In this document: in pieces, positions 7,394 through 21,924 of the stretch
Layout: every line of letters starts with the position of its first letter
How positions within the stretch are numbered: the first letter of the stretch is position 1
IMG/VR virus record: IMGVR_UViG_3300012347_000193
Location: 1-64,000 of that record
Reading direction: 5' to 3' (one strand)
From: a virus
Length of the DNA: 64,000 nucleotides
Position numbers and translations under genes: made by a program
The notes under the pieces: model-generated
The model's database searches: none
What the model saw: the letters and a program-made list of their open reading frames with translations, nothing else
Told to the model about the DNA's origin: nothing

Positions 7394-8848
7394 TTAAACC
7401 CTAAATGTACCTGAGGTGGTAAATTTGTAATACCGGTAACCGTCTACAGTAGTTACTGTTGGGTTACCAGTAGTAGCACTAAGGTTGCCGCTGGTATCTG
7501 CATATCTAAGAATAACAACTCCGCTTCCTCCGGCTTCGGCTACTTGAGATCCTGGATGGTATCCTGATGAGCCGCCGCCGCCGCCTCCAGTATTAACTGT
7601 ACCCGGTGTTGCAGGAGCAGTTAGTGTAGTATATGATCCTGCCGGGTACGTTGCTCCTCTTCCACCACCACCATTACCGCCGTTGCCCGGAGTGTAGCCT
7701 TGTGAATCAGAGTACGCAGCGCCGCCGCCGCCGCCTGCATAATAATTACCGTCACTCCACTGAACTCCTATGCCTCCATTACCGCCCGTAAATGATGCAC
7801 CGTTACTACCAGCAGCTCCGGCGCCGCCACCACCACCGGCGCCATAAGTGCCACCATTACCACCGTCATAGCCTTGTCGTGCTTGACTTAGATAAGTTGA
7901 TCCTGGATATACACCCTTACCAATACCTGCTTGATATCCTGATGCGCCGCCACCGGATCCCCCGTTAGCAGCTAGTGCGGCATTGCCTACACCTGATCCG
8001 CCACCTATAGCAGTGACAGTAGTAAATCCACTACCTGATATTGATGAGTTTGATCCGTTATTGCCCAAAGTGCCGGCGCCACTCATGGCTGCTCCACCTG
8101 CGCCAACCTGAACACTATATGTTGTTCCCGGAGTTACAGATACGCTAGTAGCTGAAAGTAAACCACCGGCGCCGCCGCCGCCTGCGTTGTAATAGCGACC
8201 ACCACTTCCGCCGCCTGCAACTACTAAGTAATCCAATGATGTAGGAACGTTTAATACACTTATACTAAAACTTCTACTAGTTGTTTGTTGCTGACTATCT
8301 GTTGCAGTAATAGTAAATGTACTAGTACCGATGGTACTGGGTGTAGTGCCAGTTATAGCGCCAGACGCACTATTCAAACTTAAACCAGTAGGCAGACTAC
8401 CCGAAGTGATACTATATGTGATAGTTCCATCACCAGTAGCACTCACGGTTTGTGTATATGATAACGATGCCGGAGAGCTAGGTAATGCGCCGCTTGCAGT
8501 AACCCATACAGGTACATTACTGTACACCAGACCAAGCGGAAACATACCAGAACTTCCGTCAGTATTGTATACATACAGATGGTATGACGCGACACTTTTT
8601 GCAGGGCTAATAAACGTTAAACTGGTCGGACTTACATAAGTCGTGCTACAAAGTGTAGTGTCGATATACACTTTAGCTCCAGTGTTGAATCCACTGCCAT
8701 TTACGGTGATTGTTTCACTACCGGCAGGGTTACCTGCAGTAGCACTTCCAGTATATGTTAGACTAGTTATCTTAACACCTGCGCTTGCAACGCTATTAAT
8801 AACAGAAGTTAATGCGGTTGCTTTTACTGCTTTTAAACTTGTTGCCAT
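7394..8848 (-). CDS. Ig-like (IPT/TIG + putative Ig) plus glycine-rich domain protein, probable adhesin/fibre tip
   Basis: ITVNGSGF...YVYNTDG (IPT-like); SGSLPTGLSLNSASGAITGT (putative Ig); YLVVAGGGSGG...GGSGVVILRY polyglycine-rich domain. Confidence 0.8.
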   Translation of the reverse strand: MATSLKAVKATALTSVINSVASAGVKITSLTYTGSATAGNPAGSETITVNGSGFNTGAKVYIDTTLCSTTYVSPTSLTFISPAKSVASYHLYVYNTDGSSGMFPLGLVYSNVPVWVTASGALPSSPASLSYTQTVSATGDGTITYSITSGSLPTGLSLNSASGAITGTTPSTIGTSTFTITATDSQQQTTSRSFSISVLNVPTSLDYLVVAGGGSGGRYYNAGGGGAGGLLSATSVSVTPGTTYSVQVGAGGAAMSGAGTLGNNGSNSSISGSGFTTVTAIGGGSGVGNAALAANGGSGGGASGYQAGIGKGVYPGSTYLSQARQGYDGGNGGTYGAGGGGGAGAAGSNGASFTGGNGGIGVQWSDGNYYAGGGGGAAYSDSQGYTPGNGGNGGGGRGATYPAGSYTTLTAPATPGTVNTGGGGGGSSGYHPGSQVAEAGGSGVVILRYADTSGNLSATTGNPTVTTVDGYRYYKFTTSGTFRV

Positions 8849-9939
8849 TATAATTCCAATACTTTCCAGCCATATGTGCTGTTGCTATATACCAAACCAA
8901 AGCTACTCTGATCCGTATCTACTAATAAATCCTGAGCAATATTTTGTATCTTGTGACCATTTCTCGCTACTGTTAGGTTGTTTGTACTAAATGTGCCAGC
9001 CAAGTCGTTAATGCGAATTGTGTCTCCTAGAGTTGCACTAGTCGGTAATGTCATGGTTGTTGCGCCTGCGGATGTGTCAACAAAGTACCCATTATTTACT
9101 GACATTGTTGTGTTACTAGATACAATATTCCAAGTCATAGATGAGCTTGAGCTTCCACCTGAAGTTGTTCCACGAACAAATGTACTGACTTCAATCACAC
9201 TGTTAGTTACCGGCGTGCTACCAAAGCTGATAGAATTTCCAAACAAGTCGAATGAGTCTCGCAACTGCATCACACCGTCAATGTTGATAATTATGAAATC
9301 TTTACTTGACGGAGTCACTGACAATTGAAAGGCGTTGTTTGATCCATCTGCGGTAAATGCATCTACCGCTACGTCAGGTAAAACTTCTTGAGTTCCACCG
9401 CCGGTCTGTGCGGTCCAAGAAAGATTTCCCGTTCCATCTGTTTTTAATACGTAGTTAGCAACGCCGCCAGTAATTTTTACATTACCGATATCACCTACTG
9501 TTACTAGACCATTAACAGTCAAGTTAGCAAGAGTACCGAGACTAGTGATGTTTGGTTGTGCAGCGATAGTAATATTACCTGCGTATGCCGCATAGTTTGC
9601 ATTGCCCACTGTGCCACTGACATTTGCACCAGTTAGGTTAGTAAGAAGACTTCCATCACCGCTGAAATAATTTGCAACTACAATATTGCCTAAATTTGCA
9701 TTATCTGCAATAACATTACCTGATACAATTATAGAATTAGCAGAGACAGTGTCCGATGATACATTACTCGATGTTACTGTATTTGAAGTAATGACGTTAG
9801 CATTTACTGTACCTGCAACAATATCACCACCGTTGCTCAATACCGCATCCACATACGCCTTGGTTGCAGCATCTTGGCTTGCCGAAGGAGCTGCCAAGTT
9901 CTTCAGTTGGGTGGGTGATGGGAAAGATAAAAATGCCAT
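8848..9939 (-). CDS. Fibre/adaptor protein with C-terminal T4 gp9/gp10/gp34-like repeat domain
   Basis: DAATKAYVD motif; FTADG beta-sandwich; C-terminal YFVDTS...TLP...GDTIRINDLAGTF.TNNLTV.RNG.KI...LVY...GW. Confidence 0.7.
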   Translation of the reverse strand: MAFLSFPSPTQLKNLAAPSASQDAATKAYVDAVLSNGGDIVAGTVNANVITSNTVTSSNVSSDTVSANSIIVSGNVIADNANLGNIVVANYFSGDGSLLTNLTGANVSGTVGNANYAAYAGNITIAAQPNITSLGTLANLTVNGLVTVGDIGNVKITGGVANYVLKTDGTGNLSWTAQTGGGTQEVLPDVAVDAFTADGSNNAFQLSVTPSSKDFIIINIDGVMQLRDSFDLFGNSISFGSTPVTNSVIEVSTFVRGTTSGGSSSSSMTWNIVSSNTTMSVNNGYFVDTSAGATTMTLPTSATLGDTIRINDLAGTFSTNNLTVARNGHKIQNIAQDLLVDTDQSSFGLVYSNSTYGWKVLEL

Positions 9940-9940
9940 A

Positions 9941-11581
9941 TTATGATGTAGTTACGATTGTCGTTACTTGACTGAAATTAGTAAAACCCCATACAGAATA
10001 TGTTTGACCTGATATTGTTACTTGCCCAGTTTCATCGGGTGTGTCAACAATATCAGAGCCTAAAAATACGTGCTTGAATGTATGTGATGTTGTGTTAGGT
10101 GTTGCAATCCAAAGATAGTTATTTGGATTAGTTCCAGTATTTGCTCCTTGACCTACGGTAAAGTTATTGCTATTGTGTGAGTCACCTGTTGTGAATGACG
10201 GAACACTGTTAGATGTTGTTGTTTTCCAAAACAACGGATAATATTTAGTAGCCGCTGATACTGTTCCGTTAATAGAACCTGTCATTGTACGTGAGCCTGC
10301 ACCGAAGCCGCCAGTACCTACATAATCACTACTGTTCATAATATATGTAAGTGTGCTATCTAGTGACGGGCTTGATCCTGATGTTGATCCAGTTGAGGTC
10401 AATGACCCTGAAATATTCTGTACACCGTTTGCATATGTTAAATTACCTGCGGTAGCAGTTGCTCCTGTTGTCGCAGTTGCGGACCAAGTGAACACCTGAT
10501 TAATGTCCCAATATGGAACAGAACTTGACGGGAATGAACCAGTGAATGCAGTGATGTTGAATGGTATAGGTTGATTGTTAGTTAATGTATTACCGGTAGA
10601 AGAGTAAACTCCTCTAGTTGTAGTTAAATTAAGACTAACAGTGTCAGTGGCTTGTGTTTGCGGTGTTGAGCTTAGATAACTACTAGGAATTGTGTAAGTA
10701 CCACTGTTTCCAGTAATTCCCAAAGCTACGATGTTTGCGCCAGTTACTGTGCTTCCACCAATCGTAATAGTATCAGTCGTTTTAATATCAAATGATGCGT
10801 TAGCAAGACTAAAAGTTATTGATACATTTTGTGAATTAATAGAATTAGTGATGTAGTTGATGTAAGCGTTCTTAGCTGTTCCACCACTCGCCCATGCCGA
10901 TGTTGTAGAAATGCTAACTGGACCTAGTTGATTAATAGTAAAAACACCAGCGGGGTAATTAGTATCAGAATAGTCTGATACGATTTCTAAAGTAGAACCA
11001 GCAACGATTGTGTTAACGTTTGACACGACACAAGCGTAAAAATTACCAGATAATGATGAAGTAGAGATTCCGGTAAGTTGACTACCATTACCAATAAAGT
11101 AATTTGCGTGTAGATTACCGTACTCATTGACAGTAACAACGTTGTTACTGACTGAAACATTACTTCCCAATACAAACTCGCCGGCTGAGTTATCCCAACC
11201 CATGAAAGCATCAACTGGTTGGGTAGTGAAGTAATGTAATAATTGACCACGATCCTTTGAATCGTTGTTAGTAAGTGCAGAACCGTTAGGGTTACCGCCC
11301 TGTTCAATCAACGGATCTTTTATGTTTAGTGTATCAACGTTAGAATATACAATATTACCGTTGATAATCAGATTGCCAGTAAAAACTGCATTGTTTGCAC
11401 CAATATCTTTAGTGACAACTAAATTGCCACCGATATATGCATTTCCGTTCGCGCCTAAACCACCGGTTACGACTAGTGCGCCAGAAGTCGGTGAAGTTGC
11501 GGCAACCGTTCCAGCAACGGTTAAAACGGTATCGATTTGTGCGTTACCGTAAACTCGTGTCCCTGAACGTAATAATGCCAT
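9941..11581 (-). CDS. Tail-fibre-like protein
   Basis: 546 aa; N-terminal region paralogous to the 1402-aa fibre (RVYG; DPLIE.GG...KDRG.LLHY...DAFMGWDNSAGEF). Confidence 0.75.
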   Translation of the reverse strand: MALLRSGTRVYGNAQIDTVLTVAGTVAATSPTSGALVVTGGLGANGNAYIGGNLVVTKDIGANNAVFTGNLIINGNIVYSNVDTLNIKDPLIEQGGNPNGSALTNNDSKDRGQLLHYFTTQPVDAFMGWDNSAGEFVLGSNVSVSNNVVTVNEYGNLHANYFIGNGSQLTGISTSSLSGNFYACVVSNVNTIVAGSTLEIVSDYSDTNYPAGVFTINQLGPVSISTTSAWASGGTAKNAYINYITNSINSQNVSITFSLANASFDIKTTDTITIGGSTVTGANIVALGITGNSGTYTIPSSYLSSTPQTQATDTVSLNLTTTRGVYSSTGNTLTNNQPIPFNITAFTGSFPSSSVPYWDINQVFTWSATATTGATATAGNLTYANGVQNISGSLTSTGSTSGSSPSLDSTLTYIMNSSDYVGTGGFGAGSRTMTGSINGTVSAATKYYPLFWKTTTSNSVPSFTTGDSHNSNNFTVGQGANTGTNPNNYLWIATPNTTSHTFKHVFLGSDIVDTPDETGQVTISGQTYSVWGFTNFSQVTTIVTTS

Positions 11582-11604
11582 TTCTTATATTCTCAATCTA
11601 GTAC

Positions 11605-11832
11605 TTATGCAATTCCTGAAGTCTCGTCAAAAACCCCAGCAATTCTCACAACACCATTGGCGTGTTGTTGCATCGCTCTACTATTTAGCGTACCTGAAAC
11701 TTCGTCAAATTCATAAGCAAACACCCCCGAAGGAGTGATGCTTATGTTTGATTGGCTAATTTCGTTAAAGACTACGCCATTGCTGGCGTAGAATGTACCT
11801 GAGCTATTCAACCTAGCTGCAATGTTAGCCAT
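11605..11832 (-). CDS. Small connector-like protein, paralog of the termini of the 284-aa protein
   Basis: 75 aa: ARL...GT...EFDEV...AM.Q..NG.....FDE. Confidence 0.7.
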   Translation of the reverse strand: MANIAARLNSSGTFYASNGVVFNEISQSNISITPSGVFAYEFDEVSGTLNSRAMQQHANGVVRIAGVFDETSGIA

Positions 11833-11841
11833 TTATCTTCC

Positions 11842-14800
11842 TTAGTTGAAGATGAAGTCTAAGCTGTTTGCAGAAGCGTTAAATTGAATATAAGCTGCAC
11901 TGTCTGTTCCACCGTTATTATTAGCGAAACCAACTGCTTTGCCTGTATAGATGTTACCTGTAGCACTCATACCACCTGCAACCTTAACAGTACCTGTTAC
12001 TGCGCTTGTTGTAGCAATGTCACCGCTTGCAACGATAACGTTTGCAGCAGTAATATTGTTAGCAGTAACGTTACCAGTAGCGTTAATAGCACCGGTTACG
12101 TTTGCACCAGTACCAGTAACTGCAATGATTTGACTTCCGCCAACGCTCAATGAGATGTTACCGTTTAGCGCAACTGAAACGTTGCTTGTACCATTGCTGA
12201 TAATGCTTGTGTCAACTGTAGCCCATGATAATGATCCTGTGCCGTCAGTCTTCAAGAATTGACCATCAGAGCCACCAGTAATAACAACATTACCGACTGG
12301 GCCTAAGTTAGATGTACCATCAACTGTTAGACCAGTTAGTGTACCAACAGTGCGAATGTTTGTCTGAGTAGCAGTAGTTAATGTGCCGCCCAAATTATCT
12401 GCATCAACAGTGGTCGCAGAAATTACGTTTGCACCGCTAATATTTCCAGTTACAGTCAACACATTTGTAGTGCTGTTGAACGTGAAGTTTGCACTTGCAG
12501 CTAAATCGTCACCAGCCGAAGACTTGAACTGAATTTCAGTTGCATTACCTGCTGCTGATTGGAAGTCGATTGGAGTTCCGTTTGCATAGTAATAGTTGTC
12601 AGTTTTAATACCACCGGTCGATACGTTTGCAGTAACACTCAATGATGACAATGTGCCAACGCTAGTGATGTTAGGCTGTGCTGCTGTGTAAACAGTACCT
12701 GCAACTAATGCATTACCTACTTGACCGTTAACGTTTCCACCGTCTACTGAGTAAGCAACATCAGCGATGTTAGCATGGTTTGCACCAGAAACATCACCTG
12801 ATACGTTGCCGCCTGATACTGAGTAAGCAGTACCAGCAGTTGTTGCGTATGTTGCGTTTGCGACTGTACCGGTTACGTTAGCACCAGTGATGCTCGACAA
12901 TGCTGAACCATTACCTTGGAAGTAGTTAGCAATAACCAAGTTACCTAAGTTAGCATTAGCTGAACTGATGTTACCAGTGACTGCCAATGACTCTAAATTA
13001 CCAACTGAAGTGATGTTTGGTTGAGCACTAGTTGTTAATGAACCTGCTACTGTATTAGCTGCAATATTATCAACAGTTAATGTACCACTAACATATGTGA
13101 AATTATTGTCATGCGCTAAAGTGTTGCCTGCGCCTACAAATTGCAATGCGCCTGCAACGCCGCCAACAGTGATGTTACCAGAGATGTTACCTGATACGTC
13201 ACCTACAACGTTACCGATGAAGTTTGGAGCAGAGATTGAACCGTTACCAATTGTTACGCCACCAATATACAAGTTACCAACAACGTTTGCGTCACCACCG
13301 ATTGTGATGTTACCTGTAGTTTCTAAACTTGTACCAGTTGCTGCACCAATGTTAGGTGTAACCAATGTTAAACCATCTTTTACTTGCAATGTATCTGCTA
13401 CGATAGTAAGTGTAGATTCGTCAACGTTAACGCTGAAATCTGTACCTGTTAAAGTTAAACCTGAACCTGCACTATATGCTCCTGCACCAGAGAACTGAGT
13501 GAAGTCAATATCACCTGAACCGTCTGTTGCACCCATTGCAGTAAATGTATCTGATGTTGCAGCAACTGTCCAACCTGTGTTCTGATTTGTTGCGCCTTCA
13601 GCTACGAATACGAAAGCACCCTTTACTTCGCTTGTCTTGTTCATGTCTAATGAACGAGTCAAGATTAATACAGGAGAAACTTGAGTGATATCATAGATAC
13701 CATTTTCCCAAGCATCTGCTTGATCCTTAACTAGAATACGTTGATTGATTTCGACTGCATGAGTATCAATGCTTGATATAGTAGTTGCAAATGTCAATGT
13801 TGCGCCTGCGCCGTCTGTACCATTGTCATATGTTGCATCTAAAGCTGCTGTTGTTGCGCTATGAGCACTAATCTTTACAGATAGACCTTGAGCAACACCG
13901 TCAACATATCCTTTGTTTGCTGCATCTGAACTTGCGTCAGGAGTAGCAACGCTAGTGATGCGCTTGTTAGATACATCAACTGTACCTGTGCCTGTAGGAG
14001 CAAGAACAACGTTACCGTTTGTGTCTGATGCACTGATAGTGATATCAGCAGTTGTAGCAACGATATCAGCAGTAGTTAGTTTAGGAGTATCGATGTTACC
14101 AGTAACTGATACATCGCCAGACGCATCAATATCACCTGTTGTGATACTACCTGAATCTGCGATTCCAGTTACAGAAATTGCAGCACCAGAGATGTTTCCA
14201 GTAACGTTAGCATTACCTGTTGCGTTTAATGAACCTACGTTAGCAGCTCCAGTAACAATAATGCTATCAGTTTTAACTAAACCGTTAGCAGAGAAGCCAA
14301 CATCCAATAATCCACCGCCGCCTTGTGATGCACTGTTATAAGTTAAGTTTGCACTTGAACCAAAGTCACCGTTGTTGTTGAATTGTAGTTGTGTGTTTGA
14401 ACCAGCAGCTTGTTGGAAGTCAACTGGAGCGCCGTTCGCATAGTAGTAGTTATCAGTTAAGATACCACCAGTTTGTAGGTTACCGACAACGTTTGCAACA
14501 GTTAAGTTACCCAATGAAGTTACATTTGGTTGTGCAGCAGTAGATAAAGTACCTTCTAATGTAGTTGCTTTAACTGTACCAGAGTTTGCATAAACGTTAC
14601 CTGAAATGACATTAGCTGAAGCGATTACGTTATTTGCAGCAAAATCAGCAGTTGTAGTCAATGCAGTTAAATTTGACTCGATGATTTGGTCACCTAAATA
14701 GATGGTGTTACCTGCTAAGTATAAGTCTTTCCAACGATTAGATGCATTACCTAAGTTGTATGTTACGTTAGCGTCAGGGATCAAGTTACCGTTAACTTGT

Positions 14801-16050
14801 CCAGCAATCTTTAGATTACCGATGTTTGCAGTACCCGTAGTATTGAAGTTTGCACCGTCAACGTTACCAGTTGCAACAACTGCACCAGTACCTAAGTTAC
14901 CTGTATTTGCATTACCAGTTACACTCAATGTACCTGTGAATACACCTGCAGTTGCGCCCAAATTGCCAACGTTTGCATTACCTGTTACAGATAATACACC
15001 ACCAGATTCAATGTTTCCACCAGCAATATTACCTGAAACAGTTAACGATGTCAATGTACCGACACTAGTGATATTACCTTGAGCAGGGTTTGTTACGGTG
15101 TTTGCGTTTACAACTTCACCTGAAACATTTCCACCGGCTACTGAGTAAGCAACGTTTGCAACGTTTGCGATAGTAGCGTGGTCTGCGTCTGGAACATATC
15201 CAGTTACGTTTGCACCTGTGATACTTGACAAGCCAGCGCCATTACCGCTGAATGCATTACCAGTGATAGTGTCACCAGTAATGTCACCAGAAAGTGTCAA
15301 AGCGTGAGTTGATTTGTTGAACGTGAAGCCGGAAATTGCGTTTACTGCGCCACCGTCGTTGAACAAGATATAAGTATTGCTACCAGGAGCAGCTAGAGAA
15401 CCTGAAACGTTAGCGTAGATAGTACCAGTAACTGTTAAATTACCACCAACTGTTGCGTTGCCTGTAATGTCAGTATCACCTGTTAGTGTGCTTGTACCAG
15501 TTACTGATAAGTCACCACCGATATCTGCATCTCCGGTAACTGATAAATCTACCAATGTACCAACACTAGTAATGTTTGGTTGACTTGATGCTGTTACAAG
15601 ACCTGCATATGAGGACATGTTAGCGTAAGCAACTGTACCGTCAACGTTTGCGCCAACGATATTTGTTAAACCTGCTGCGTTACCAAAGAATGTACCAGCA
15701 CGTAAATTACCGTATGTGTTGTAAGATACAACTTCACCTGAAACAGTAACATCGCTACCTAACGCAAATTCACCTGCTGAGTTGTCCCAGCCCATGAACG
15801 CATCTTTAGCTGCGCCGTTATAGTAGTGCAACAATGAACCACGGTCTTTGCCGTCGTTTGATGCTAACGCACCTGAATCTGCTCCACCTAATTCGATTAG
15901 TGGATCAGTGATTTTCATAGTATCTACATATGAGTAGATAGTATTTCCAGTAACTGTTAAGTTACCATTGATAGTCGTATCGCTTGAAACGGTTAATACA
16001 CTATCGATATCAAGATTACCGTAAACTCTAGAGTCTTTTAACTTTGCCAT
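11842..16050 (-). CDS. Long tail-fibre protein
   Basis: 1402 aa G/N/T/V-rich; about six QPNITSVGTL-like repeats, AGSNTQLQFN modules, DAANKGYVD, RILVKDQ...ENGIY domain; AAGGA SD. Confidence 0.85.
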   Translation of the reverse strand: MAKLKDSRVYGNLDIDSVLTVSSDTTINGNLTVTGNTIYSYVDTMKITDPLIELGGADSGALASNDGKDRGSLLHYYNGAAKDAFMGWDNSAGEFALGSDVTVSGEVVSYNTYGNLRAGTFFGNAAGLTNIVGANVDGTVAYANMSSYAGLVTASSQPNITSVGTLVDLSVTGDADIGGDLSVTGTSTLTGDTDITGNATVGGNLTVTGTIYANVSGSLAAPGSNTYILFNDGGAVNAISGFTFNKSTHALTLSGDITGDTITGNAFSGNGAGLSSITGANVTGYVPDADHATIANVANVAYSVAGGNVSGEVVNANTVTNPAQGNITSVGTLTSLTVSGNIAGGNIESGGVLSVTGNANVGNLGATAGVFTGTLSVTGNANTGNLGTGAVVATGNVDGANFNTTGTANIGNLKIAGQVNGNLIPDANVTYNLGNASNRWKDLYLAGNTIYLGDQIIESNLTALTTTADFAANNVIASANVISGNVYANSGTVKATTLEGTLSTAAQPNVTSLGNLTVANVVGNLQTGGILTDNYYYANGAPVDFQQAAGSNTQLQFNNNGDFGSSANLTYNSASQGGGGLLDVGFSANGLVKTDSIIVTGAANVGSLNATGNANVTGNISGAAISVTGIADSGSITTGDIDASGDVSVTGNIDTPKLTTADIVATTADITISASDTNGNVVLAPTGTGTVDVSNKRITSVATPDASSDAANKGYVDGVAQGLSVKISAHSATTAALDATYDNGTDGAGATLTFATTISSIDTHAVEINQRILVKDQADAWENGIYDITQVSPVLILTRSLDMNKTSEVKGAFVFVAEGATNQNTGWTVAATSDTFTAMGATDGSGDIDFTQFSGAGAYSAGSGLTLTGTDFSVNVDESTLTIVADTLQVKDGLTLVTPNIGAATGTSLETTGNITIGGDANVVGNLYIGGVTIGNGSISAPNFIGNVVGDVSGNISGNITVGGVAGALQFVGAGNTLAHDNNFTYVSGTLTVDNIAANTVAGSLTTSAQPNITSVGNLESLAVTGNISSANANLGNLVIANYFQGNGSALSSITGANVTGTVANATYATTAGTAYSVSGGNVSGDVSGANHANIADVAYSVDGGNVNGQVGNALVAGTVYTAAQPNITSVGTLSSLSVTANVSTGGIKTDNYYYANGTPIDFQSAAGNATEIQFKSSAGDDLAASANFTFNSTTNVLTVTGNISGANVISATTVDADNLGGTLTTATQTNIRTVGTLTGLTVDGTSNLGPVGNVVITGGSDGQFLKTDGTGSLSWATVDTSIISNGTSNVSVALNGNISLSVGGSQIIAVTGTGANVTGAINATGNVTANNITAANVIVASGDIATTSAVTGTVKVAGGMSATGNIYTGKAVGFANNNGGTDSAAYIQFNASANSLDFIFN

Positions 16051-16082
16051 TTTTTATTTTCCTTTTGGTTTTCTATAATGTA

Positions 16083-16937
16083 TTAACTTATAGTAGTTAC
16101 TTCGTCAATGATATTTGCAACTTGCAAAGTACCATCTCTTAATTGTTTCATTGCACCGTTATAAACAGTAGACAATGGAGTAGTTGAACTGTAAGCTGCG
16201 GAACCAGTATTAGTTAATACTTTGTCACCTGCAGTTGATGAATCAACAAGCATGTTTGCCTGATTAGCAACATTTAATAATATTACTGTGTTTTGCACAT
16301 CAGAAAGTGATTGCACTGGCATAGCAAAATTGCCTCTATACACTGCAATACCTTTAACAATTCTAAAGTTAGTAAAGAATCCATCTAATAGGTCTTCACC
16401 ATCTAAGTTTGCACCTAACGCCAACGGACGGCTGTTAGTTCCAGAGTAAGGTGAGTTGTCAGTGATATGACTTACGCCATTGATATAGACATCTACTACT
16501 CCGTTGTGTTTTTCTAATGCAACGTGAAACCATTGGAATTGAGGAATAGCACTTGGACCTGATGTTTGTACACCGTTTGCATCTGTGCCGTCCCAATAAT
16601 ATAATTTTCCATCTAGTACTTCTAAAGTGTCACCACCTGTGAAGAACCATAGTCTCATGTGCGCTGTGCTTCTAATAAAAAACCAGCCTTCAATTGTGAA
16701 GTCATCCTCGCCAAAGCCGAAATCAGCGGAACCCAATACAGTAATGTATTGAGTTGTTCCATTCAATTCAATAGAACCACCTGAGGGTAAACCTGCAGGA
16801 AGTGTAATCTCATCAAACTCGTCAGCAAAAATTCCGTCAGCTTTGATAGAATGAGTGGATTGGAGAGTTTCATCAAACTCCCCTGCTGTTACTAGCGTTC
16901 CATCATTGACTAATCTAGCCCCGATTGTTGTTGTCAT
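16083..16937 (-). CDS. LamG/concanavalin-A-like lectin domain protein inside a connector scaffold
   Basis: DFTIEGWF...QWFHVAL...VYINGV...FRIVKG.AVY is a phage LamG-like pattern. Confidence 0.75.
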   Translation of the reverse strand: MTTTIGARLVNDGTLVTAGEFDETLQSTHSIKADGIFADEFDEITLPAGLPSGGSIELNGTTQYITVLGSADFGFGEDDFTIEGWFFIRSTAHMRLWFFTGGDTLEVLDGKLYYWDGTDANGVQTSGPSAIPQFQWFHVALEKHNGVVDVYINGVSHITDNSPYSGTNSRPLALGANLDGEDLLDGFFTNFRIVKGIAVYRGNFAMPVQSLSDVQNTVILLNVANQANMLVDSSTAGDKVLTNTGSAAYSSTTPLSTVYNGAMKQLRDGTLQVANIIDEVTTIS

Positions 16938-16945
16938 AAAAAGTT

Positions 16946-17557
16946 TTACCCGTTAAAATTAAAATCTATACTTTCGACACCATCATTATAGTTAATGATT
17001 CCTCTAGAAGAAGTTCCCCCTAGACCATTAGCTAAATGAATTGCGCCGCCTATATATAAGTCTTTCGCAATGCCTACACCACCCGCCGTGACAATTGACC
17101 CGGTATCCGTGGATGTTGCATCTATAGTACTATTTATGACCAATTGCGTATTAACCGTTGCAGTGTCGGTATTTAGGCTAGTTATTGTAGCAGAATCTGC
17201 TACCAAAGTGTTGATATTTGCACTAGAAGCAGTGATTTCACCAGTGAAATTAATCCCTGTTGCGTTTGCAGAAATAGTCTGCGTTCCAATGTTTATAGTG
17301 TTAGCTAGGTATAAATCATTGAACTTTTGTGCAACGCTACCCAAGTCATATGCTGCATTTGTTTTAGGTATTAAATTAGAACCAACTACATCCGCTATTA
17401 ACTCTGCTGCGGAGACTTTAGTAGTAGCAATTATGTTTGCTGAGGTGACTGAGATTGAAGCAAATACACTGGCAGCATTGATGCCATCAGTAGCCGCATT
17501 AAGACTTATACCGCCCGTCTTTAACCCAGTTCTAACGTTAAATGCTTTTGTTACCAT
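16946..17557 (-). CDS. Short fibre segment protein
   Basis: 203 aa; YDLGS..KFNDLYL module; GSIVTAGGVGIAKDLYIG; ends SIDFNFNG. Confidence 0.7.
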   Translation of the reverse strand: MVTKAFNVRTGLKTGGISLNAATDGINAASVFASISVTSANIIATTKVSAAELIADVVGSNLIPKTNAAYDLGSVAQKFNDLYLANTINIGTQTISANATGINFTGEITASSANINTLVADSATITSLNTDTATVNTQLVINSTIDATSTDTGSIVTAGGVGIAKDLYIGGAIHLANGLGGTSSRGIINYNDGVESIDFNFNG

Positions 17558-17574
17558 TGTATTACATACTCGCT

Positions 17575-18954
17575 TTAATCAGCTAAGTAAGTCCCCATTA
17601 TTCTTATTGTTGTGTTGGCTGCAATGTTAGTCGCATACATCTCTATATTTCCTGCTGATATTTCTGCTGTTATCTCAACTACATCCATATCAACAGTAGA
17701 AATATCTCCGTAGATAGTAATGAATGCGTCAACGTCATCGTGTATCAACAGAACTTCTAGAGTTTGAAAACCTAAATCACTGCTTGCTCTTATTATATAT
17801 TTAGCTGACCTAAAATCTGTGGTAGTGAAGCTATCAACTACAGTGACTCCGTCAACTTCAATTATCGGGTTTGCGCTAACTAAACGAGGAGTAACTAGGT
17901 TACTTGTTGTTACTAAATTTCCTCTGACAGTAGTGTTACCAGTAGTAGAACCAATTGTTACATTACTAGAAAGACCCAAGTTAACATTAGAAACACCGGT
18001 GTTAAAAATTCCAGCAGTCTCATTAATAACTGCGATTGGTGATGAGCCTATTGTTAAAATACCACCAGTTACACTAACGTTTGCTACGCTTAGTAAGTTA
18101 GTAGAACTATTGAATGTGAAAGTGTCGTCACTAGAAAATCCGCTACCAGAGCCAAACATGACTTCAGTTGCAGGAACTGCTGCTGGATCTGATGACCCTG
18201 AAAGAACACGATATATAGTTACTTCGATATGTTGACCAGCTGCCGGAGCCTCATCAAATACGATAGCTCCGTTCTCTACAGTGAACACTGGTTCTTGCTG
18301 AACTAAACCATCGATGTTAACTACAACGTTGTCAACACTATGTGGGTCAGTTGTTAAAGCAAATACAGTTTCAGTTCCATTGGCAGTAAATCTATTTTTA
18401 CTAATCCCAATAAAACCTGATTCTACTACTGTGCCACTCGCTGAAGGTTCCCAGCTTACATCACCTTGACCATTTGTAGTTAATACATAACCAGATGCGC
18501 CGCCGGGTAGTACTAGATTATCAACTGCGGTTAGTGTTACTAACCCAGTTACATTTAAATTTTCTAATGTTCCTACACTAGTAATGTTTGCTTGAGCGTG
18601 AGTAGTTAGTGTACCGTTAATAAAGGGAGCAGATAGTAATCCTGTAGTCTTATTAAACGTGAATGTTTCGTCTGCGCCAAACAGACCCATATCATTAAAC
18701 TGAACGTAGGTATCGAATCCAACACAACCAACGTCTGCTGGATTAGTCCAAGATAAGTTACCTTCGCCGTCTGTCTGTAATACGAAGCCACCAGTACCAC
18801 CCTCGATTCGGATGTTGCCAACTTGTCCCAAATCAGTTAGATTAGTAACTGTTAGGTTATTAGCAGCAACGTTGGCAGCGTCATCAATGACTTCATGTAT
18901 GACAACATCTCCGACAGAGATGCCTGCGATTGCGTTGAACTTTTTAATTGCCAT
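17575..18954 (-). CDS. Fibre segment protein
   Basis: 459 aa; FNAIAG N-terminus, FTANG beta-sandwich, C-terminal FRSAKYII...IHD...IYG domain. Confidence 0.75.
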   Translation of the reverse strand: MAIKKFNAIAGISVGDVVIHEVIDDAANVAANNLTVTNLTDLGQVGNIRIEGGTGGFVLQTDGEGNLSWTNPADVGCVGFDTYVQFNDMGLFGADETFTFNKTTGLLSAPFINGTLTTHAQANITSVGTLENLNVTGLVTLTAVDNLVLPGGASGYVLTTNGQGDVSWEPSASGTVVESGFIGISKNRFTANGTETVFALTTDPHSVDNVVVNIDGLVQQEPVFTVENGAIVFDEAPAAGQHIEVTIYRVLSGSSDPAAVPATEVMFGSGSGFSSDDTFTFNSSTNLLSVANVSVTGGILTIGSSPIAVINETAGIFNTGVSNVNLGLSSNVTIGSTTGNTTVRGNLVTTSNLVTPRLVSANPIIEVDGVTVVDSFTTTDFRSAKYIIRASSDLGFQTLEVLLIHDDVDAFITIYGDISTVDMDVVEITAEISAGNIEMYATNIAANTTIRIMGTYLAD

Positions 18955-18974
18955 AATGGTTATTACTGTTGCAA

Positions 18975-21158
18975 TTAGATTGTTCTATACTGGACTGTCC
19001 AGACTGTTTCGTTACCTGATGATGGGTTAACGTTTAGTAGCACTAAATTATTTTCTCCATCATATACTACGTTAAATGTTCCAGTAGATGCACCTGAATG
19101 TACGCCACCGTATGTTGACCACTCAACTTCGTCAACACTATTGTGAACTGCTGAGATTGTTGCGACACTATATTTCTTAGGTGTGCTTACACTATCTTCG
19201 CCCTTGACAAAGAATTCAACTGCTCTAAAGTTTGCAACTGGTAGACCAATAATTGTGCGCTCTGTAGTAGCAGTAGTAGTTAGTGTAGCCGAGCCAACTT
19301 TACTATCACCGATTACTAAGTCGCCAGTGTTTGTTGTGCCAGTAACTGTTAAATCTTCATCAATCGTAGTTAATGTTTCTGAAATTACAACAACGTTTGA
19401 AACACCTGCTACGCTGATAGCAATATTACCACCCAATCCAGTAGGACTATCTGGTCCAGGACCAGTTACTGTTACATTGCTTGTACCGTTTGCTAATCTA
19501 TATGTATCGATTGTAGCCCAGTACAATTCACCTGCACCGTCAGTGCTCAAGACTTGGCGAATGTCACCATCGACTAATGGATACTGTAATCCGCTAGCTT
19601 CTAATGATGCAATGCTTGCATGAGTGTCTACAGTTAGTGTTCCTGCTACATCTAAATTTGTTAATGTTCCTACAGTAGTAATCTGTGTTTGTGACGCAGT
19701 TAGTATTGTACCTGATACATTACCGATAAACTTTTCAGCATGAATGTTTGCATACGTACCAGTAACAACTTCGTTTGTTACTGTTACACCAGTCATTGCA
19801 CGGAATTCGTCATTACCTGTGCTCCAGTACAATGCTTGATTGTTTACAGCAGTGTCATCTGAAGTTCTGTTACGTAACCACAAGCCACGGTCTTTACCAT
19901 CATAGGCTGATAAATTTCCACCGCTTCCAGAACCACCTAAACTAATTAAAGGATCTTTTATATCTAACGATGCTACGTTAATGTATGTTGTTGTACCACC
20001 AACTGTTAAGTTTCCTGATACAGTTACATCACCTTGCAACAATGCCTCATCTGCAATAGTTAGCTTGTTAGCGGTAATTCTGTTTGCAGCAGTTAATGCA
20101 TCAACTTGAATTACATTACCAATAGCACGAATGTAACCTAATGAGCTTCCTACGAATACATTTGAGCCAGCCCAGACATTGCGCCATGCTAGTGTAGAAC
20201 TACCCAAGTCAACGGTGTTGTCATTCGCAGGGATTAAACTTGTTAGAACTCTTGCACTAACACTTAAATTTCCAGTTTCTACATCAGTCGCAGTGATTGT
20301 TGTATCAACGTCTAAGTAATCCAATGTACCAACAGTATGAATGTTAGGTTGTGCGCTAGATGTTGCATCGAGTACACCATGGAAGAAATTTGCAGTAGCT
20401 AAGTTACCTAAGTCTGCATTTCCGGTAATCAAGTTACCAACCAATGTCAATACGTTTGAAGTATAGTCAAACTGTAGATTTGAACTGTAATATAAATTGC
20501 TACCTTTAGTGAACGCAATAGTTTTGTCAGTGGCGCCAATGTTAACATTACCACCAGAAATACTACCAATCAAATTACCAATGAATCTTGGTGCCTCAAC
20601 ATTACCAGTAACTACTGCTTTGCCGTCAATTGCAATATTTCCAGTAGTATGTAAATTGCCTGTTTCGATGTTACCCGTAACTGTCAATACACTTGAAGTT
20701 TTATCAAACGTGAAGTTAGTACTTGCATCAAAATTATCACCGGTATTGAATTGAATCTGTGTGTCAGAGCCTGCTGCTTCTTGCAAGTCCCATGCTACAC
20801 CGTTTGCATATAGCAAGTTATCAGTACGCAAGTTACCAGTCAACAATGTGTTTGTTACATTTGAGTTACCAGTGACAGTCAACGTATTAGTAATACTATT
20901 GAACGAGAAGTTAGCTGATGCACCAAACTGTCCGTCTAGATAGTACTGAACTTGTCCGTTAGCAGAACCAGCAGCTTCTTGAAAGTCCCAAGGTACACCG
21001 TTTGCGTATAGCAAGTGGTCTGTCTTTACATTACCTGCGTCTACGTTTGCAGTAAACGTAGCAAAATCGGTAGTAATGTCACCGTTTGCTAAAATAATCG
21101 TTTCGGGTGTTTCACCTACTGAGAATCCGCCTACCGAGTTAAAGGTTCTAATTGCCAT
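18975..21158 (-). CDS. Fibre segment protein
   Basis: 727 aa; FNSVGG N-terminus, TD.LLYANGV.WD.QEAAGS x2, C-terminal FRAVEF...VHN...TYG domain; AGGA SD. Confidence 0.8.
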   Translation of the reverse strand: MAIRTFNSVGGFSVGETPETIILANGDITTDFATFTANVDAGNVKTDHLLYANGVPWDFQEAAGSANGQVQYYLDGQFGASANFSFNSITNTLTVTGNSNVTNTLLTGNLRTDNLLYANGVAWDLQEAAGSDTQIQFNTGDNFDASTNFTFDKTSSVLTVTGNIETGNLHTTGNIAIDGKAVVTGNVEAPRFIGNLIGSISGGNVNIGATDKTIAFTKGSNLYYSSNLQFDYTSNVLTLVGNLITGNADLGNLATANFFHGVLDATSSAQPNIHTVGTLDYLDVDTTITATDVETGNLSVSARVLTSLIPANDNTVDLGSSTLAWRNVWAGSNVFVGSSLGYIRAIGNVIQVDALTAANRITANKLTIADEALLQGDVTVSGNLTVGGTTTYINVASLDIKDPLISLGGSGSGGNLSAYDGKDRGLWLRNRTSDDTAVNNQALYWSTGNDEFRAMTGVTVTNEVVTGTYANIHAEKFIGNVSGTILTASQTQITTVGTLTNLDVAGTLTVDTHASIASLEASGLQYPLVDGDIRQVLSTDGAGELYWATIDTYRLANGTSNVTVTGPGPDSPTGLGGNIAISVAGVSNVVVISETLTTIDEDLTVTGTTNTGDLVIGDSKVGSATLTTTATTERTIIGLPVANFRAVEFFVKGEDSVSTPKKYSVATISAVHNSVDEVEWSTYGGVHSGASTGTFNVVYDGENNLVLLNVNPSSGNETVWTVQYRTI

Positions 21159-21169
21159 TTTTCTTTTCC

Positions 21170-21859
21170 TTATTCTTTATAACTTGTTGCCATTATTTTG
21201 TATGTGATGCTATGTGATGTTGCAGGTTTAACAGTTAACGCTACATATCCTGAAACGTTTTCTACTTTAAAATCTGCAACGCCGGGACTAGTTACAGGAA
21301 CATCAATTGTTCCGTATTCAAAATATCCTACTTCACCGTCTAATACACTAGCAAACAGTTTGCTTGTTTGTCTACATCCAATCGTTCTATCAGTTGCAAT
21401 AATAGTGTAATCAACTGAACATATCGTTGATCCTAATTGTGAATGAAGTACTTGCCCAGCTGATGCACTTGTTGTAGTTGCAAACATCACTGATGCAGTT
21501 GAGAATTCGTTAGAACCTATTCCCAATGTGTATGCATTTGCAATTGCTCTACCATCAACCGTGAGTATTCGAGCATCGTAGTCAAAGGTAAGATGTGAAT
21601 CAGTACCTGCAAGACCTTGCTTGTTTATCAAAACATCTTTGTCATTACCAGTAACTGTTAGTTCACCTTCAATTTGACCTTGAAAACTTCCAACAAATAA
21701 TCCTGCACTTACATTACCACTAACTGTTACATCACCACCAACACTAACCGTATCAAACGTAGCAGAAGGTGCAGTAATTGCACCTGTCTCACTAATGATA
21801 GGTTGAGGAGGAATACCTACTGTATAACCGCCTACTGAATTGAATGGATCTACTGCCAT
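21170..21859 (-). CDS. Proximal fibre segment protein (start revised to MAVDPF)
   Basis: FNSVGG N-terminus aligns with neighbours; GGGA SD precedes 21859; C-terminal ...FEYG domain; late box at 21888-21893. Confidence 0.7.
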   Translation of the reverse strand: MAVDPFNSVGGYTVGIPPQPIISETGAITAPSATFDTVSVGGDVTVSGNVSAGLFVGSFQGQIEGELTVTGNDKDVLINKQGLAGTDSHLTFDYDARILTVDGRAIANAYTLGIGSNEFSTASVMFATTTSASAGQVLHSQLGSTICSVDYTIIATDRTIGCRQTSKLFASVLDGEVGYFEYGTIDVPVTSPGVADFKVENVSGYVALTVKPATSHSITYKIMATSYKE

Positions 21860-21924
21860 GAATGGTCCCAAATATAATCTTATACATTATTTATCATAAT
21901 TCGACAATAGCATCTGACAGCCGT

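Follow-up and report, generated by a model that had tools for sequence, protein, structure and literature searches.

How are the parts of a tail fibre held together when the fibre is encoded as separate segments? An uncultured, giant, T4-like phage from a lake, whose tail fibre is encoded in this way, raises the question, and we analysed a stretch of 64,000 nucleotides of its genome (IMG/VR record IMGVR_UViG_3300012347_000193, positions 1 to 64,000; hereafter the window). To our knowledge, a single-copy hinge joining trimeric fibre segments is understood only for T4 gp35, and there only at ~7 Å. Five genes of the window probably encode one articulated fibre, consisting of three rods (203, 1402 and 546 aa) and two knees.

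Fibre ends that recur in the window

The five ORFs are all found on the minus strand, in the places given by the first-pass annotation, and their translations contain the strings quoted there letter for letter (Table 1). Exactly as that annotation had claimed, a fibre ending in S(I/L)DFxFN, an ARL…FDE protein and a fibre starting with MA.L…RVYGN follow one another on this strand twice in succession. Below, the conserved fibre ends are called C-terminal and N-terminal plugs, the ARL…FDE proteins connectors, and the two series candidate joints 1 and 2. In a six-frame translation of the 64-kb window, the motifs R[VI]YGN, S[LI]DF.FN and ARL..[SD]GT occur twice each and only at the fibre sites. By BLASTP, the 1402- and 546-aa proteins are 42% identical over their N-terminal ~160-200 aa (E-value of 1e-31), the 203- and 1402-aa proteins are 35% identical over their C-terminal ~110 aa (3e-9), and the two connectors match at both ends (1e-7 and 2e-4). 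Judged by the best of these E-values for each, the three parts of the joint are paralogous domains, chance motifs being excluded.

Table 1. Features of the fibre locus, in order of transcription except that each protein precedes its own parts.
Feature	Sequence	Coordinates	Strand	Remark or basis
Putative proximal fibre segment, 203 aa (P0001)		16946..17557	-	Contributes its C-terminal ~110 aa as the upstream half of candidate joint 1
C-terminal plug, joint 1 (end of the 203-aa protein)	INYNDGVESIDFNFNG	16949..16996	-	Translation and six-frame motif count
Connector 1, 284 aa (P0002)	IGARLVNDGTLVTAGEFDE ... AMKQLRDGTLQVANIIDE	16083..16937	-	Three-repeat domain interrupted by a LamG lectin-like insertion
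Connector 1, repeats 1 and 2, aa 1-46	IGARLVNDGTLVTAGEFDE, HSIKADGIFADEFDE	16800..16937	-	Translation, repeat HMM, connector profile
LamG/concanavalin-like insert, aa 59-194, cargo of connector 1		16356..16763	-	Pfam PF13385 (E-value of 1.6e-12), AF2, Foldseek
Connector 1, repeat 3, aa 260-284	GAMKQLRDGTLQVANIIDEVTTIS	16086..16160	-	Translation, repeat HMM, connector profile
Putative middle fibre rod, 1402 aa (P0003)	start MAKLKDSRVYGNLDIDSVLTV, end IQFNASANSLDFIFN	11842..16050	-	N-terminal and C-terminal plugs both present
N-terminal plug, joint 1	MAKLKDSRVYGNLDIDSVLTVS	15985..16050	-	Translation and paralogy with the 546-aa fibre
C-terminal plug, joint 2	AAYIQFNASANSLDFIFN	11845..11898	-	Translation and six-frame motif count
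Connector 2, 75 aa (P0004)	IAARLNSSGT ... FAYEFDE ... AMQQHANGVVRIAGVFDE	11605..11832	-	Bare three-repeat domain
Putative distal fibre segment, 546 aa (P0005)	start MALLRSGTRVYGNAQIDTVLTV	9941..11581	-	N-terminal plug present; translation, paralogy
N-terminal plug, joint 2	MALLRSGTRVYGNAQIDTVLTVA	11513..11581	-	Translation and six-frame motif count

Each of the genes has a start of its own. A Shine-Dalgarno-like AAGGAAG or AAAGGAAAA lies 5' of the 75-aa and 1402-aa genes, and the AAGGAAG of the 75-aa gene overlaps the stop codon of the preceding 1402-aa fibre gene; at the other two starts no such sequence is as clear. An internal domain of the 1402-aa rod is matched by orf22 of PDB entry 9efk.

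Among relatives, the C-terminal plug is preserved with the consensus I.YN....SIDF[KN]FNG, and a broader consensus for the end of the upstream rod reads Y..[FY]N....S[LI]D[FT].F[GN]. The N-terminal plug of the downstream rod follows MA[KL]L.SGTR[IV]YGN..[IV]D..L.V, and across divergent clades its conservation is limited to the first ~22 aa. Wherever an IMG/VR locus reaches far enough upstream, an orthologue of the 203-aa protein (149-268 aa) occupies this position, and orthologues of the 1402-aa protein (1273-1691 aa) are present in nearly all loci. The fibres are mosaic: unrelated fibre bodies bear similar plugs, and the N-terminal plug is far more conserved than the body behind it. This is consistent with the earlier proposal that segments are added or swapped as cassettes. 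Short conserved plugs on unrelated bodies would form natural recombination boundaries, which may aid the reading of host-range modules in metagenomic phages.

Two origins of the plugs were considered. That they are copies of the connector repeat is unsupported, as the repeat HMM gives them 1-4 bits, within background. A derivation of the C-terminal plug as a truncated form of an internal fibre repeat (IQFN..G.F..S.NFTFN..T.LTV) is weak: the YIQFN part of joint 2 alone scored 8-11 bits, where shuffles reached as much as 9.3 bits, and the C-terminal plug of joint 1 gave no score.

The connector family and its cargo

The connector is a domain of ~70 aa composed of three pseudo-repeats of 20-26 aa, each predicted to form a beta-hairpin and each ending in an invariant F-D-E. 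For the 75-aa protein, public data contain 49 homologues, 75-85 aa in length. A connector profile run against 1.84 billion representatives returned 149 matches, of which ~145 remained after the removal of four repeat-protein false positives. Two of these, P0063 and P0116, proved on reading to consist of Ig-like repeats; the other two, P0178 and P0193, matched over six and nine repeated stretches without the FDE spacing and were set aside unread on that basis. Almost all matches have three FDE motifs, ~20 and ~26 residues apart. The domain always lies at one end of the protein or is divided between both ends, and none of the representative matches has it fused to a fibre with a plug.

Within the window's own contig, the connector profile recovered the 75-aa gene (E-value of 1.5e-33) and both parts of connector 1 (16797-16931, E-value of 6e-16; 16086-16160, E-value of 2e-5). 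An HMM of repeat 3 scored up to 15.5 bits on the N-terminal repeats, whereas none of 1600 shuffles exceeded 7.2 bits. The connector domain, whether from the window's proteins or from divergent ones, matched no family in Pfam or PHROG, a profile search of the PDB with the connector alignment gave nothing below an E-value of 0.3, and the clusters found in the ESM Atlas were all viral and unnamed, with scores below 0.9. The connector is a real and widespread family that was previously undescribed.

Connectors are either bare, as in the 75-aa protein, or bear cargo, and bare forms of 70-80 aa are common. Three sites can take cargo: ahead of repeat 1, between repeats 2 and 3, and behind repeat 3. 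In the 284-aa connector, a LamG domain stands between repeats 2 and 3, and the family alignment has conserved ends with variable inserts. This insert belongs to LamG PF13385 by its score (48.2 bits, with a gathering cut-off of 27.6) and with the support of a jelly-roll fold. Of the 81 cargo-bearing members, 37 have LamG; Gly_rich_2, sialidase/BNR and Ig/fn3 domains also occur, and the largest connector-bearing proteins reach 1900-2000 aa. The lectin-like and other cargo argues for the connector being a part of the virion.

In AF2 monomer models, pLDDT exceeded 90 over the LamG core of the 284-aa protein but was 40-60 in both of its connector segments, and it was 60.6 for the bare 75-aa connector. 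Such low values would fit a part that needs its partners in order to fold, or may simply reflect shallow alignments. The connector models were too poor for fold searches; Foldseek with the 284-aa model returned LamG, pentraxin and PAPP-A folds at E-values of ~1e-8, the LamG insert being the sole part reported.

Gene order and the readings it allows

We scanned IMG/VR with patterns for the C-terminal plug alone and the N-terminal plug alone, as independent starting points. Starting from the C-terminal plug, the next gene contained a connector domain at 92 of 100 usable sites. Where the DNA downstream of a connector was readable, an N-terminal plug followed within 120 nt in 68 of 71 cases, two genes later in two, and as a spelling variant in one. 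From the N-terminal plug, a connector was found directly upstream at 45 of 71 sites, itself preceded by a C-terminal plug in 28 of the 30 testable cases; the sites with no adjacent connector mostly had the same triad with one extra gene of ~1000 aa inserted. Neither scan contained a case of a C-terminal plug gene followed directly by an N-terminal plug gene. Connector genes start -1 to +13 nt from the C-terminal plug gene and overlap its stop in many loci. In environmental phages, the order of C-terminal plug fibre, connector and N-terminal plug fibre was found in about 100 distinct contigs. The first-pass annotation had named gene-order statistics as a check and independent occurrence of the motifs as the outcome that would count against it; the opposite was found, with the motifs co-occurring in order. 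Its proposal of a dedicated small coupler fared less evenly: the connector does lie between fibre ends (92/100 and 68/71), but it often bears cargo and is not always small.

The carriers are T4-like phages. As every carrier found comes from a single broad group of T4-like aquatic phages, inherited synteny could account for part of the conserved order. No instance was found in 185,579 prokaryote genomes, and a DNA search of the cultured phage collection was likewise negative, as were those with the proteins P0004 and P0110. The one cultured carrier found, Synechococcus phage S-SRM01, was matched only via the divergent connector P0060; its three genes are gp331, gp332 and gp333, with gp332 as the connector.

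By analogy, the connector most likely joins fibre segments as the gp35 "kneecap" does in T4. We infer contact of the three parts, a 3:1:3 stoichiometry and a flexible hinge. The rods are presumably trimers, and each knee would comprise the C-terminal domain of the upstream rod, one copy of the ~70-aa connector and the N-terminal ~22 residues of the downstream rod. With its three pseudo-repeats, a single connector chain could offer a pseudo-threefold face to two threefold rods, as the gp35 monomer does through its tower domain. The connector may double as a mounting point, so that knee 1 would display the LamG lectin-like domain and knee 2 would be bare. The 1402-aa rod, bearing both kinds of plug, would form the middle link.

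The close spacing of the connector gene behind the C-terminal plug gene (-1 to +13 nt) also suits an arrangement in which the connector caps the fibre or acts as its adhesin, sitting as a monomer on the C-terminal tip of the upstream trimer and showing its cargo there, while the next fibre is a separate appendage elsewhere. T2/S16-type gp38 adhesins sit on gp37 in this way, a triple repeat is suited to capping a trimer, and the cargo of many connectors is lectin-like or very large. We consider this arrangement unlikely all the same, given that cargo-free connectors of 70-80 aa are common, that the next gene has an N-terminal plug in 68 to 71 of the 71 testable cases, that this plug is conserved well above the fibre bodies behind it, and that a rod with plugs at both ends fits a middle link. 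The T2/S16 gp38 adhesin and PAAR on gp5/VgrG resemble the connector as monomers at a trimer end, and PAAR has three internal repeats with pseudo-threefold symmetry. They differ in forming fibre or spike termini, whereas here a plug-bearing fibre gene always comes next, and they have no sequence relation to the connector.

A site directly after a fibre gene is classic for a fibre chaperone as well as for a tip adhesin. Chaperones of the Tfa type (T4 gp38, P2/Mu Tfa, lambda Tfa) are likewise encoded by a small gene directly downstream of a fibre gene, and a connector of the T4 gp38 or P2/Mu Tfa kind would aid trimerisation of the neighbouring fibre end with no structural link. The start/stop overlap in many loci and the unfolded state of the connector alone in AF2 fit this role. 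It would, however, leave the strict coupling to the downstream N-terminal plug unexplained, and LamG, sialidase-like and Ig cargo and proteins of 1000-1900 aa would be unexpected; unlike the Tfa type, connectors often carry large structural or lectin cargo, and no chaperone family was matched in Pfam or PHROGs by the window's connectors or by divergent ones. We therefore regard a chaperone as distinctly improbable. Mere tandem duplication of a three-gene block by descent, with functionally unlinked motifs, would fit the paralogy of the two joints and the relatedness of the T4-like carriers, but is hardly credible when plug and connector sequences are kept while fibre bodies, lengths and cargo are replaced, and when the order is held in about 100 distinct contigs.

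If the connector is a joint, the 75-aa protein would be a minimal version of a single-copy hinge. The family provides a natural comparative set of ~145 representative clusters, with bare and cargo-loaded forms and one or two joints per fibre, and with such natural variation the interface rules could become directly testable. The articulated-fibre reading also makes sense of a gene block, present in freshwater jumbo phages and in S-SRM01, whose members are labelled "hypothetical" or wrongly named "baseplate wedge".

Comparison with T4 gp35 and its partners

T4 gp35 is a monomer between (gp34)3 and (gp36)3 (PMC3004832). Residues 1-21 together with 324-372 make up its tower-like domain of ~70 aa, into which ILEI and CBM-like domains are inserted (bioRxiv 10.64898/2026.03.06.709160), and a repeat is visible inside this tower (AEFGQGYVQTPFLSES, AEFGVNGIRVNYICES). 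The phages studied here are T4-like, and here as in T4 the gene in question lies between those for the proximal and distal rods, the T4 order being 34-35-36. An internal repeat in a small domain is common to the two proteins, and in sequence architecture the 284-aa connector resembles gp35 in having N- and C-terminal segments (aa 1-46 and 260-284) around a lectin/CBM-like insert. The insertion follows the first ~21 residues in gp35, whereas here it follows repeat 2. The connector has no ILEI domain, and, unlike gp35, it also occurs bare at 75 aa, twice in series in one fibre, and in fusions of up to ~2000 aa.

Homology searches did not connect the two. Alignment of the connector family with gp35 by hhalign found nothing, and the connector HMM gave 0 bits on the concatenated T4 tower, a score equalled by 10% of 2000 shuffles; a detectable gp35 homologue was rejected on these two results. 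Neither window connector matched PF15711 (ILEI) or the gp35 PHROG, whereas T4 gp35 itself matches PF15711. The analogy to gp35 drawn in the first-pass annotation thus stands for gene position and for the tower-like architecture of the end segments in the 284-aa protein, but does not extend to sequence homology.

A broader reading is possible, though we hold it only tentatively and think it somewhat less than even. The FDE three-repeat domain may serve T4-like aquatic phages as a general joint, single-chain and pseudo-threefold, for building multi-jointed and branched fibres from interchangeable rods. Paralogous joints of a single phage would then be mutually orthogonal, fixing the order of assembly, and side branches of up to ~2000 aa could be attached. 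The domain might represent the "long-sought" ancestral gp35 tower, or might have arisen by convergence as a way to fit a monomer to two trimers despite their symmetry mismatch.

The neighbours of the connector gene can be compared with those of gp35 as well. The fibres here had no match to Pfam PF03903 (gp36), and the likeness lies in the short conserved ends beside the connector gene. T4 gp36 starts with MADLKVGS...; its start MADLKVGSTTGG compares with MAKLKGGTRIYG in relatives of this phage, a resemblance at motif level only. At the same motif level only, the final strand of T4 gp34, KFEWVE, which is alternating hydrophobic, resembles LDFIFN here.

Two serial modules in the fibre cluster

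The source is a T4-like uncultured phage with gp23-like major head, gp20-like portal and gp46-like genes, and its contig of 110,650 bp is 32% complete according to CheckV, which points to a jumbo genome. Within the long fibre cluster of the window, five minus-strand genes follow in succession (table). Each has its own start codon, and a Shine-Dalgarno-like sequence is clear upstream of the 75-aa and 1402-aa genes. The first-pass annotation had described a conserved fibre C-terminus (C-plug), a small connector and a conserved fibre N-terminus (N-plug), recurring twice in this order. All the strings it quoted are present in the five translations, and in a six-frame translation of all 64 kb the motifs R[VI]YGN, S[LI]DF.FN and ARL..[SD]GT each occur exactly twice, at the five genes only. 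The 1402- and 546-aa proteins share 42% identity over their N-terminal ~160-200 aa (E-value of 1e-31), the 203- and 1402-aa proteins 35% over their C-terminal ~110 aa (3e-9), and the 284- and 75-aa proteins are similar at both ends (1e-7 and 2e-4). As these similarities extend beyond the short motifs, a module of C-terminal domain, small protein and N-terminal domain occurs twice in series. By sequence, the 1402-aa protein belongs to both modules as the middle link, with the N-terminal part of one and the C-terminal part of the other.

Features discussed in this section, with coordinates in the window unless another record is named
Feature	Position	Strand	Description
203-aa gene	16946-17557	minus	C-plug of joint 1
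284-aa gene	16083-16937	minus	connector of joint 1
1402-aa gene	11842-16050	minus	N-plug of joint 1, C-plug of joint 2
75-aa gene	11605-11832	minus	connector of joint 2
546-aa gene	9941-11581	minus	N-plug of joint 2
Third junction type	8848-9941	minus	546-aa/363-aa genes
484-aa gene	7394-8848	minus	glycine-rich core
Four successive genes	16946-21871	minus	233, 727, 459 and 203 aa
ORF >4959 aa	49123-63999	plus	continues past the window end
S-SRM01 triad (locus L236)	NC_070963, 214608-220791		Synechococcus phage S-SRM01; gp331, gp332, gp333

Gene order and carriers of the triad

The five-gene series is repeated in 20 IMG/VR loci found via the 75-aa family. Since these are fairly close relatives, we made three independent pattern scans of IMG/VR. 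The first, for the connector end G.FDEVTGI, recovered the triad in divergent phages as well, and in some of them two serial joints (loci L025, L031, L109 and L112). The second, for the C-plug alone (Y..[FY]N....S.DT[VI]FG followed by a stop), returned 102 distinct sites, 100 of them with downstream DNA. The proposed gene order was borne out: the next ORF held the connector domain in 92 of the 100 (E-value ≤ 1e-3), and an ORF starting with the N-plug lay within 120 nt of 68 of the 71 connectors with readable downstream DNA. The other eight C-plug sites were mostly cut ORFs, of classes with the connector at the far end, and the remaining three connectors had the N-plug two genes later (two cases) or a variant, MAYLSDNTIVYG (one case). 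The third scan, for the N-plug alone, yielded 83 ORFs, 71 with an upstream ORF; the connector was directly upstream in 45, and the C-plug preceded it in 28 of 30 testable cases. The main exception, a ~1000-aa protein ending SWTEAQA between connector and fibre, is the same triad with an inserted fourth gene. Neither the C-plug nor the N-plug scan of IMG/VR contained a C-plug gene followed directly by an N-plug gene.

In one sub-lineage (L099, L061, L110, L124, L057 and L077), the ~1000-aa gene (MARKAILETGYTFTPST ... SWTEAQA) comes after a LamG-type connector gene and ends 3 nt ahead of the start of the N-plug fibre. In L038, L191, L214 and L232, the C-plug gene is followed by a 54-62-aa gene (M.KIDFQFDTQYGKF.DAL.L...) and then by a large MA[ND]RYWVGG.GTWD... 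protein, which has the connector domain at its C-terminus in the sole complete case (L038).

The connector-end and C-plug patterns were both absent from 185,579 prokaryote species, represented by one genome each, and each was found in >120 IMG/VR stretches. This places the module in virulent environmental phages rather than prophages. A T4-type major head gene was also present on two of the divergent contigs tested, so the carriers make up a broad group of aquatic T4-like phages, most of them jumbo. The sole cultured carrier found was the freshwater cyanophage S-SRM01, in which gp331 and gp333 are annotated as 'baseplate wedge subunit' and gp332 as 'hypothetical protein'. By sequence, these are a C-plug fibre segment (gp331), an N-terminal connector protein (gp332) and an N-plug-like fibre of 1540 aa (gp333).

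The connector and its likeness to T4 gp35

Homologues of the 75-aa protein number 49, with lengths of 75-85 aa (alignment A1), and the connector profile matched 149 of 1.84 billion representative proteins. Two matches, P0063 and P0116, were rejected on reading as Ig-like repeat false positives; P0178 and P0193, matched in many repeated stretches without the FDE spacing, were set aside unread. True members share a ~70-aa domain of three units, each with a near-invariant terminal [FLI]-D-E-[VI]-T (consensus of alignment A2: RLT.TG.L...G.FDEVT / S.IS.T....FA.EFDEVT /.A.R....G.L.VSG.FDEVTGI), and the FDE motifs are spaced about 20 and then about 26 residues apart in almost all of them. An HMM of unit 3 only scored up to 15.5 bits on N-terminal units, versus 7.2 for the best shuffle (n = 1600), which identifies the domain as an internal triple repeat. 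It always occupies a protein end, either whole at one terminus (N or C) or divided between the two, in which case units 1-2 open the protein and unit 3 closes it. The 284-aa protein has this divided arrangement, with an inserted LamG domain (PF13385; Foldseek agrees). The connector itself had no named match in Pfam, PHROGs, PDB sequences or the ESM Atlas.

LamG was found in 37 of 81 cargo-bearing members, a glycine-rich domain in six, and sialidase/BNR, Ig or fn3 domains in a few; the remaining cargo had no Pfam match. Some connector-bearing proteins reach 1100-2000 aa. If the connector were a tip-bound cap or adhesin, its cargo would be accounted for, but not the existence of bare 75-aa forms, nor the N-plug that almost always lies downstream. 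A chaperone role would account for the gene position, yet it leaves both the cargo and the coupling to the next gene unexplained.

[quoted passage not shown] A 2026 preprint resolves a tower-like domain of gp35, formed by residues 1-21 together with 324-372 and holding ILEI-like and CBM-like inserts, and likens it to the fold at the C-terminus of the gp34 trimer (bioRxiv 10.64898/2026.03.06.709160). A repeat is plain to see in the T4 sequence of this ~70-aa tower: AEFGQGYVQTPFLSES (6-21) and AEFGVNGIRVNYICES (329-344). The window connectors have the same size, ends-plus-insert architecture, internal repeat and gene position, and one of the two has a lectin-like insert. Based on these likenesses, we interpret each connector as one chain between two trimeric rods. 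Homology to gp35 was tested and none was found; we therefore propose for the connector a function like that of gp35, and do not claim membership of the gp35 family.

The three hairpin units of such a chain would offer a pseudo-threefold face between the rods, and by breaking symmetry the connector might allow the fibre to bend, while also providing a site for accessory domains. Contact among the three parts, copy number and presence in the virion are all inferred. AlphaFold2 pLDDT values were >90 for the LamG insert, 40-60 for the connector segments and 60.6 for the bare connector, which is consistent with a connector that needs its partners in order to fold, although shallow alignments could have the same effect. 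On paper, the three invariant acidic D-E pairs of the connector would lie opposite K3 and R9, both conserved, on three N-plug chains. The plugs showed no detectable relation to the connector repeat, and that of the C-plug to an internal fibre repeat was weak at best.

Conservation of the downstream fibre across clades is limited to the first ~22 residues (alignment A5). Where plugs are 75-90% identical, the bodies lack meaningful similarity in 70% of fibre pairs, and fibres with similar plugs vary in length between about 125 and >2200 aa. Similar plugs on unrelated bodies fit the earlier suggestion of cassette-like segment exchange at the joints. Pure inherited duplication leaves unexplained why joint parts are conserved while all surroundings are replaced.

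Other candidate fibre junctions

A third type of junction, which lacks a connector gene, occurs in the window and in L001-L020; nearly every related locus has its gene pair. The C-terminus of the distal fibre is ...[WY]GFTNFSQVTTIVTTS, and 1 nt further on comes a gene that opens with MAFLSFPSPTQLKNL..P....DAATK.YVD. The 484-aa protein has GGGGAGG runs in its core and the C-terminus ...GYRYYKFTTSGTFRV; its Gly_rich_2 domain is also found among connector cargo, and in L005, L009 and L016 its relatives form two to three tandem paralogues ending ...YR.YKFTASGSITF.

The 233-, 727-, 459- and 203-aa genes have related start peptides (FNSVGG[FY][ST]VG, FNAIAGISVG, FNVRTGLKTGG), apparently another chaining code, upstream of joint 1. 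The 727-aa protein contains an internal DPLI.LGG...DGKDRG domain, the same as that behind the N-plug in the 1402- and 546-aa fibres. Another candidate joint comes from L006, L014 and L026, in which the distal fibre is divided between two genes: the upstream part closes with ...GGGDYWFNITPPA or DFFYDFLPPTF, and a peptide of the G..Y.Y.W..VGW type opens the gene after it.
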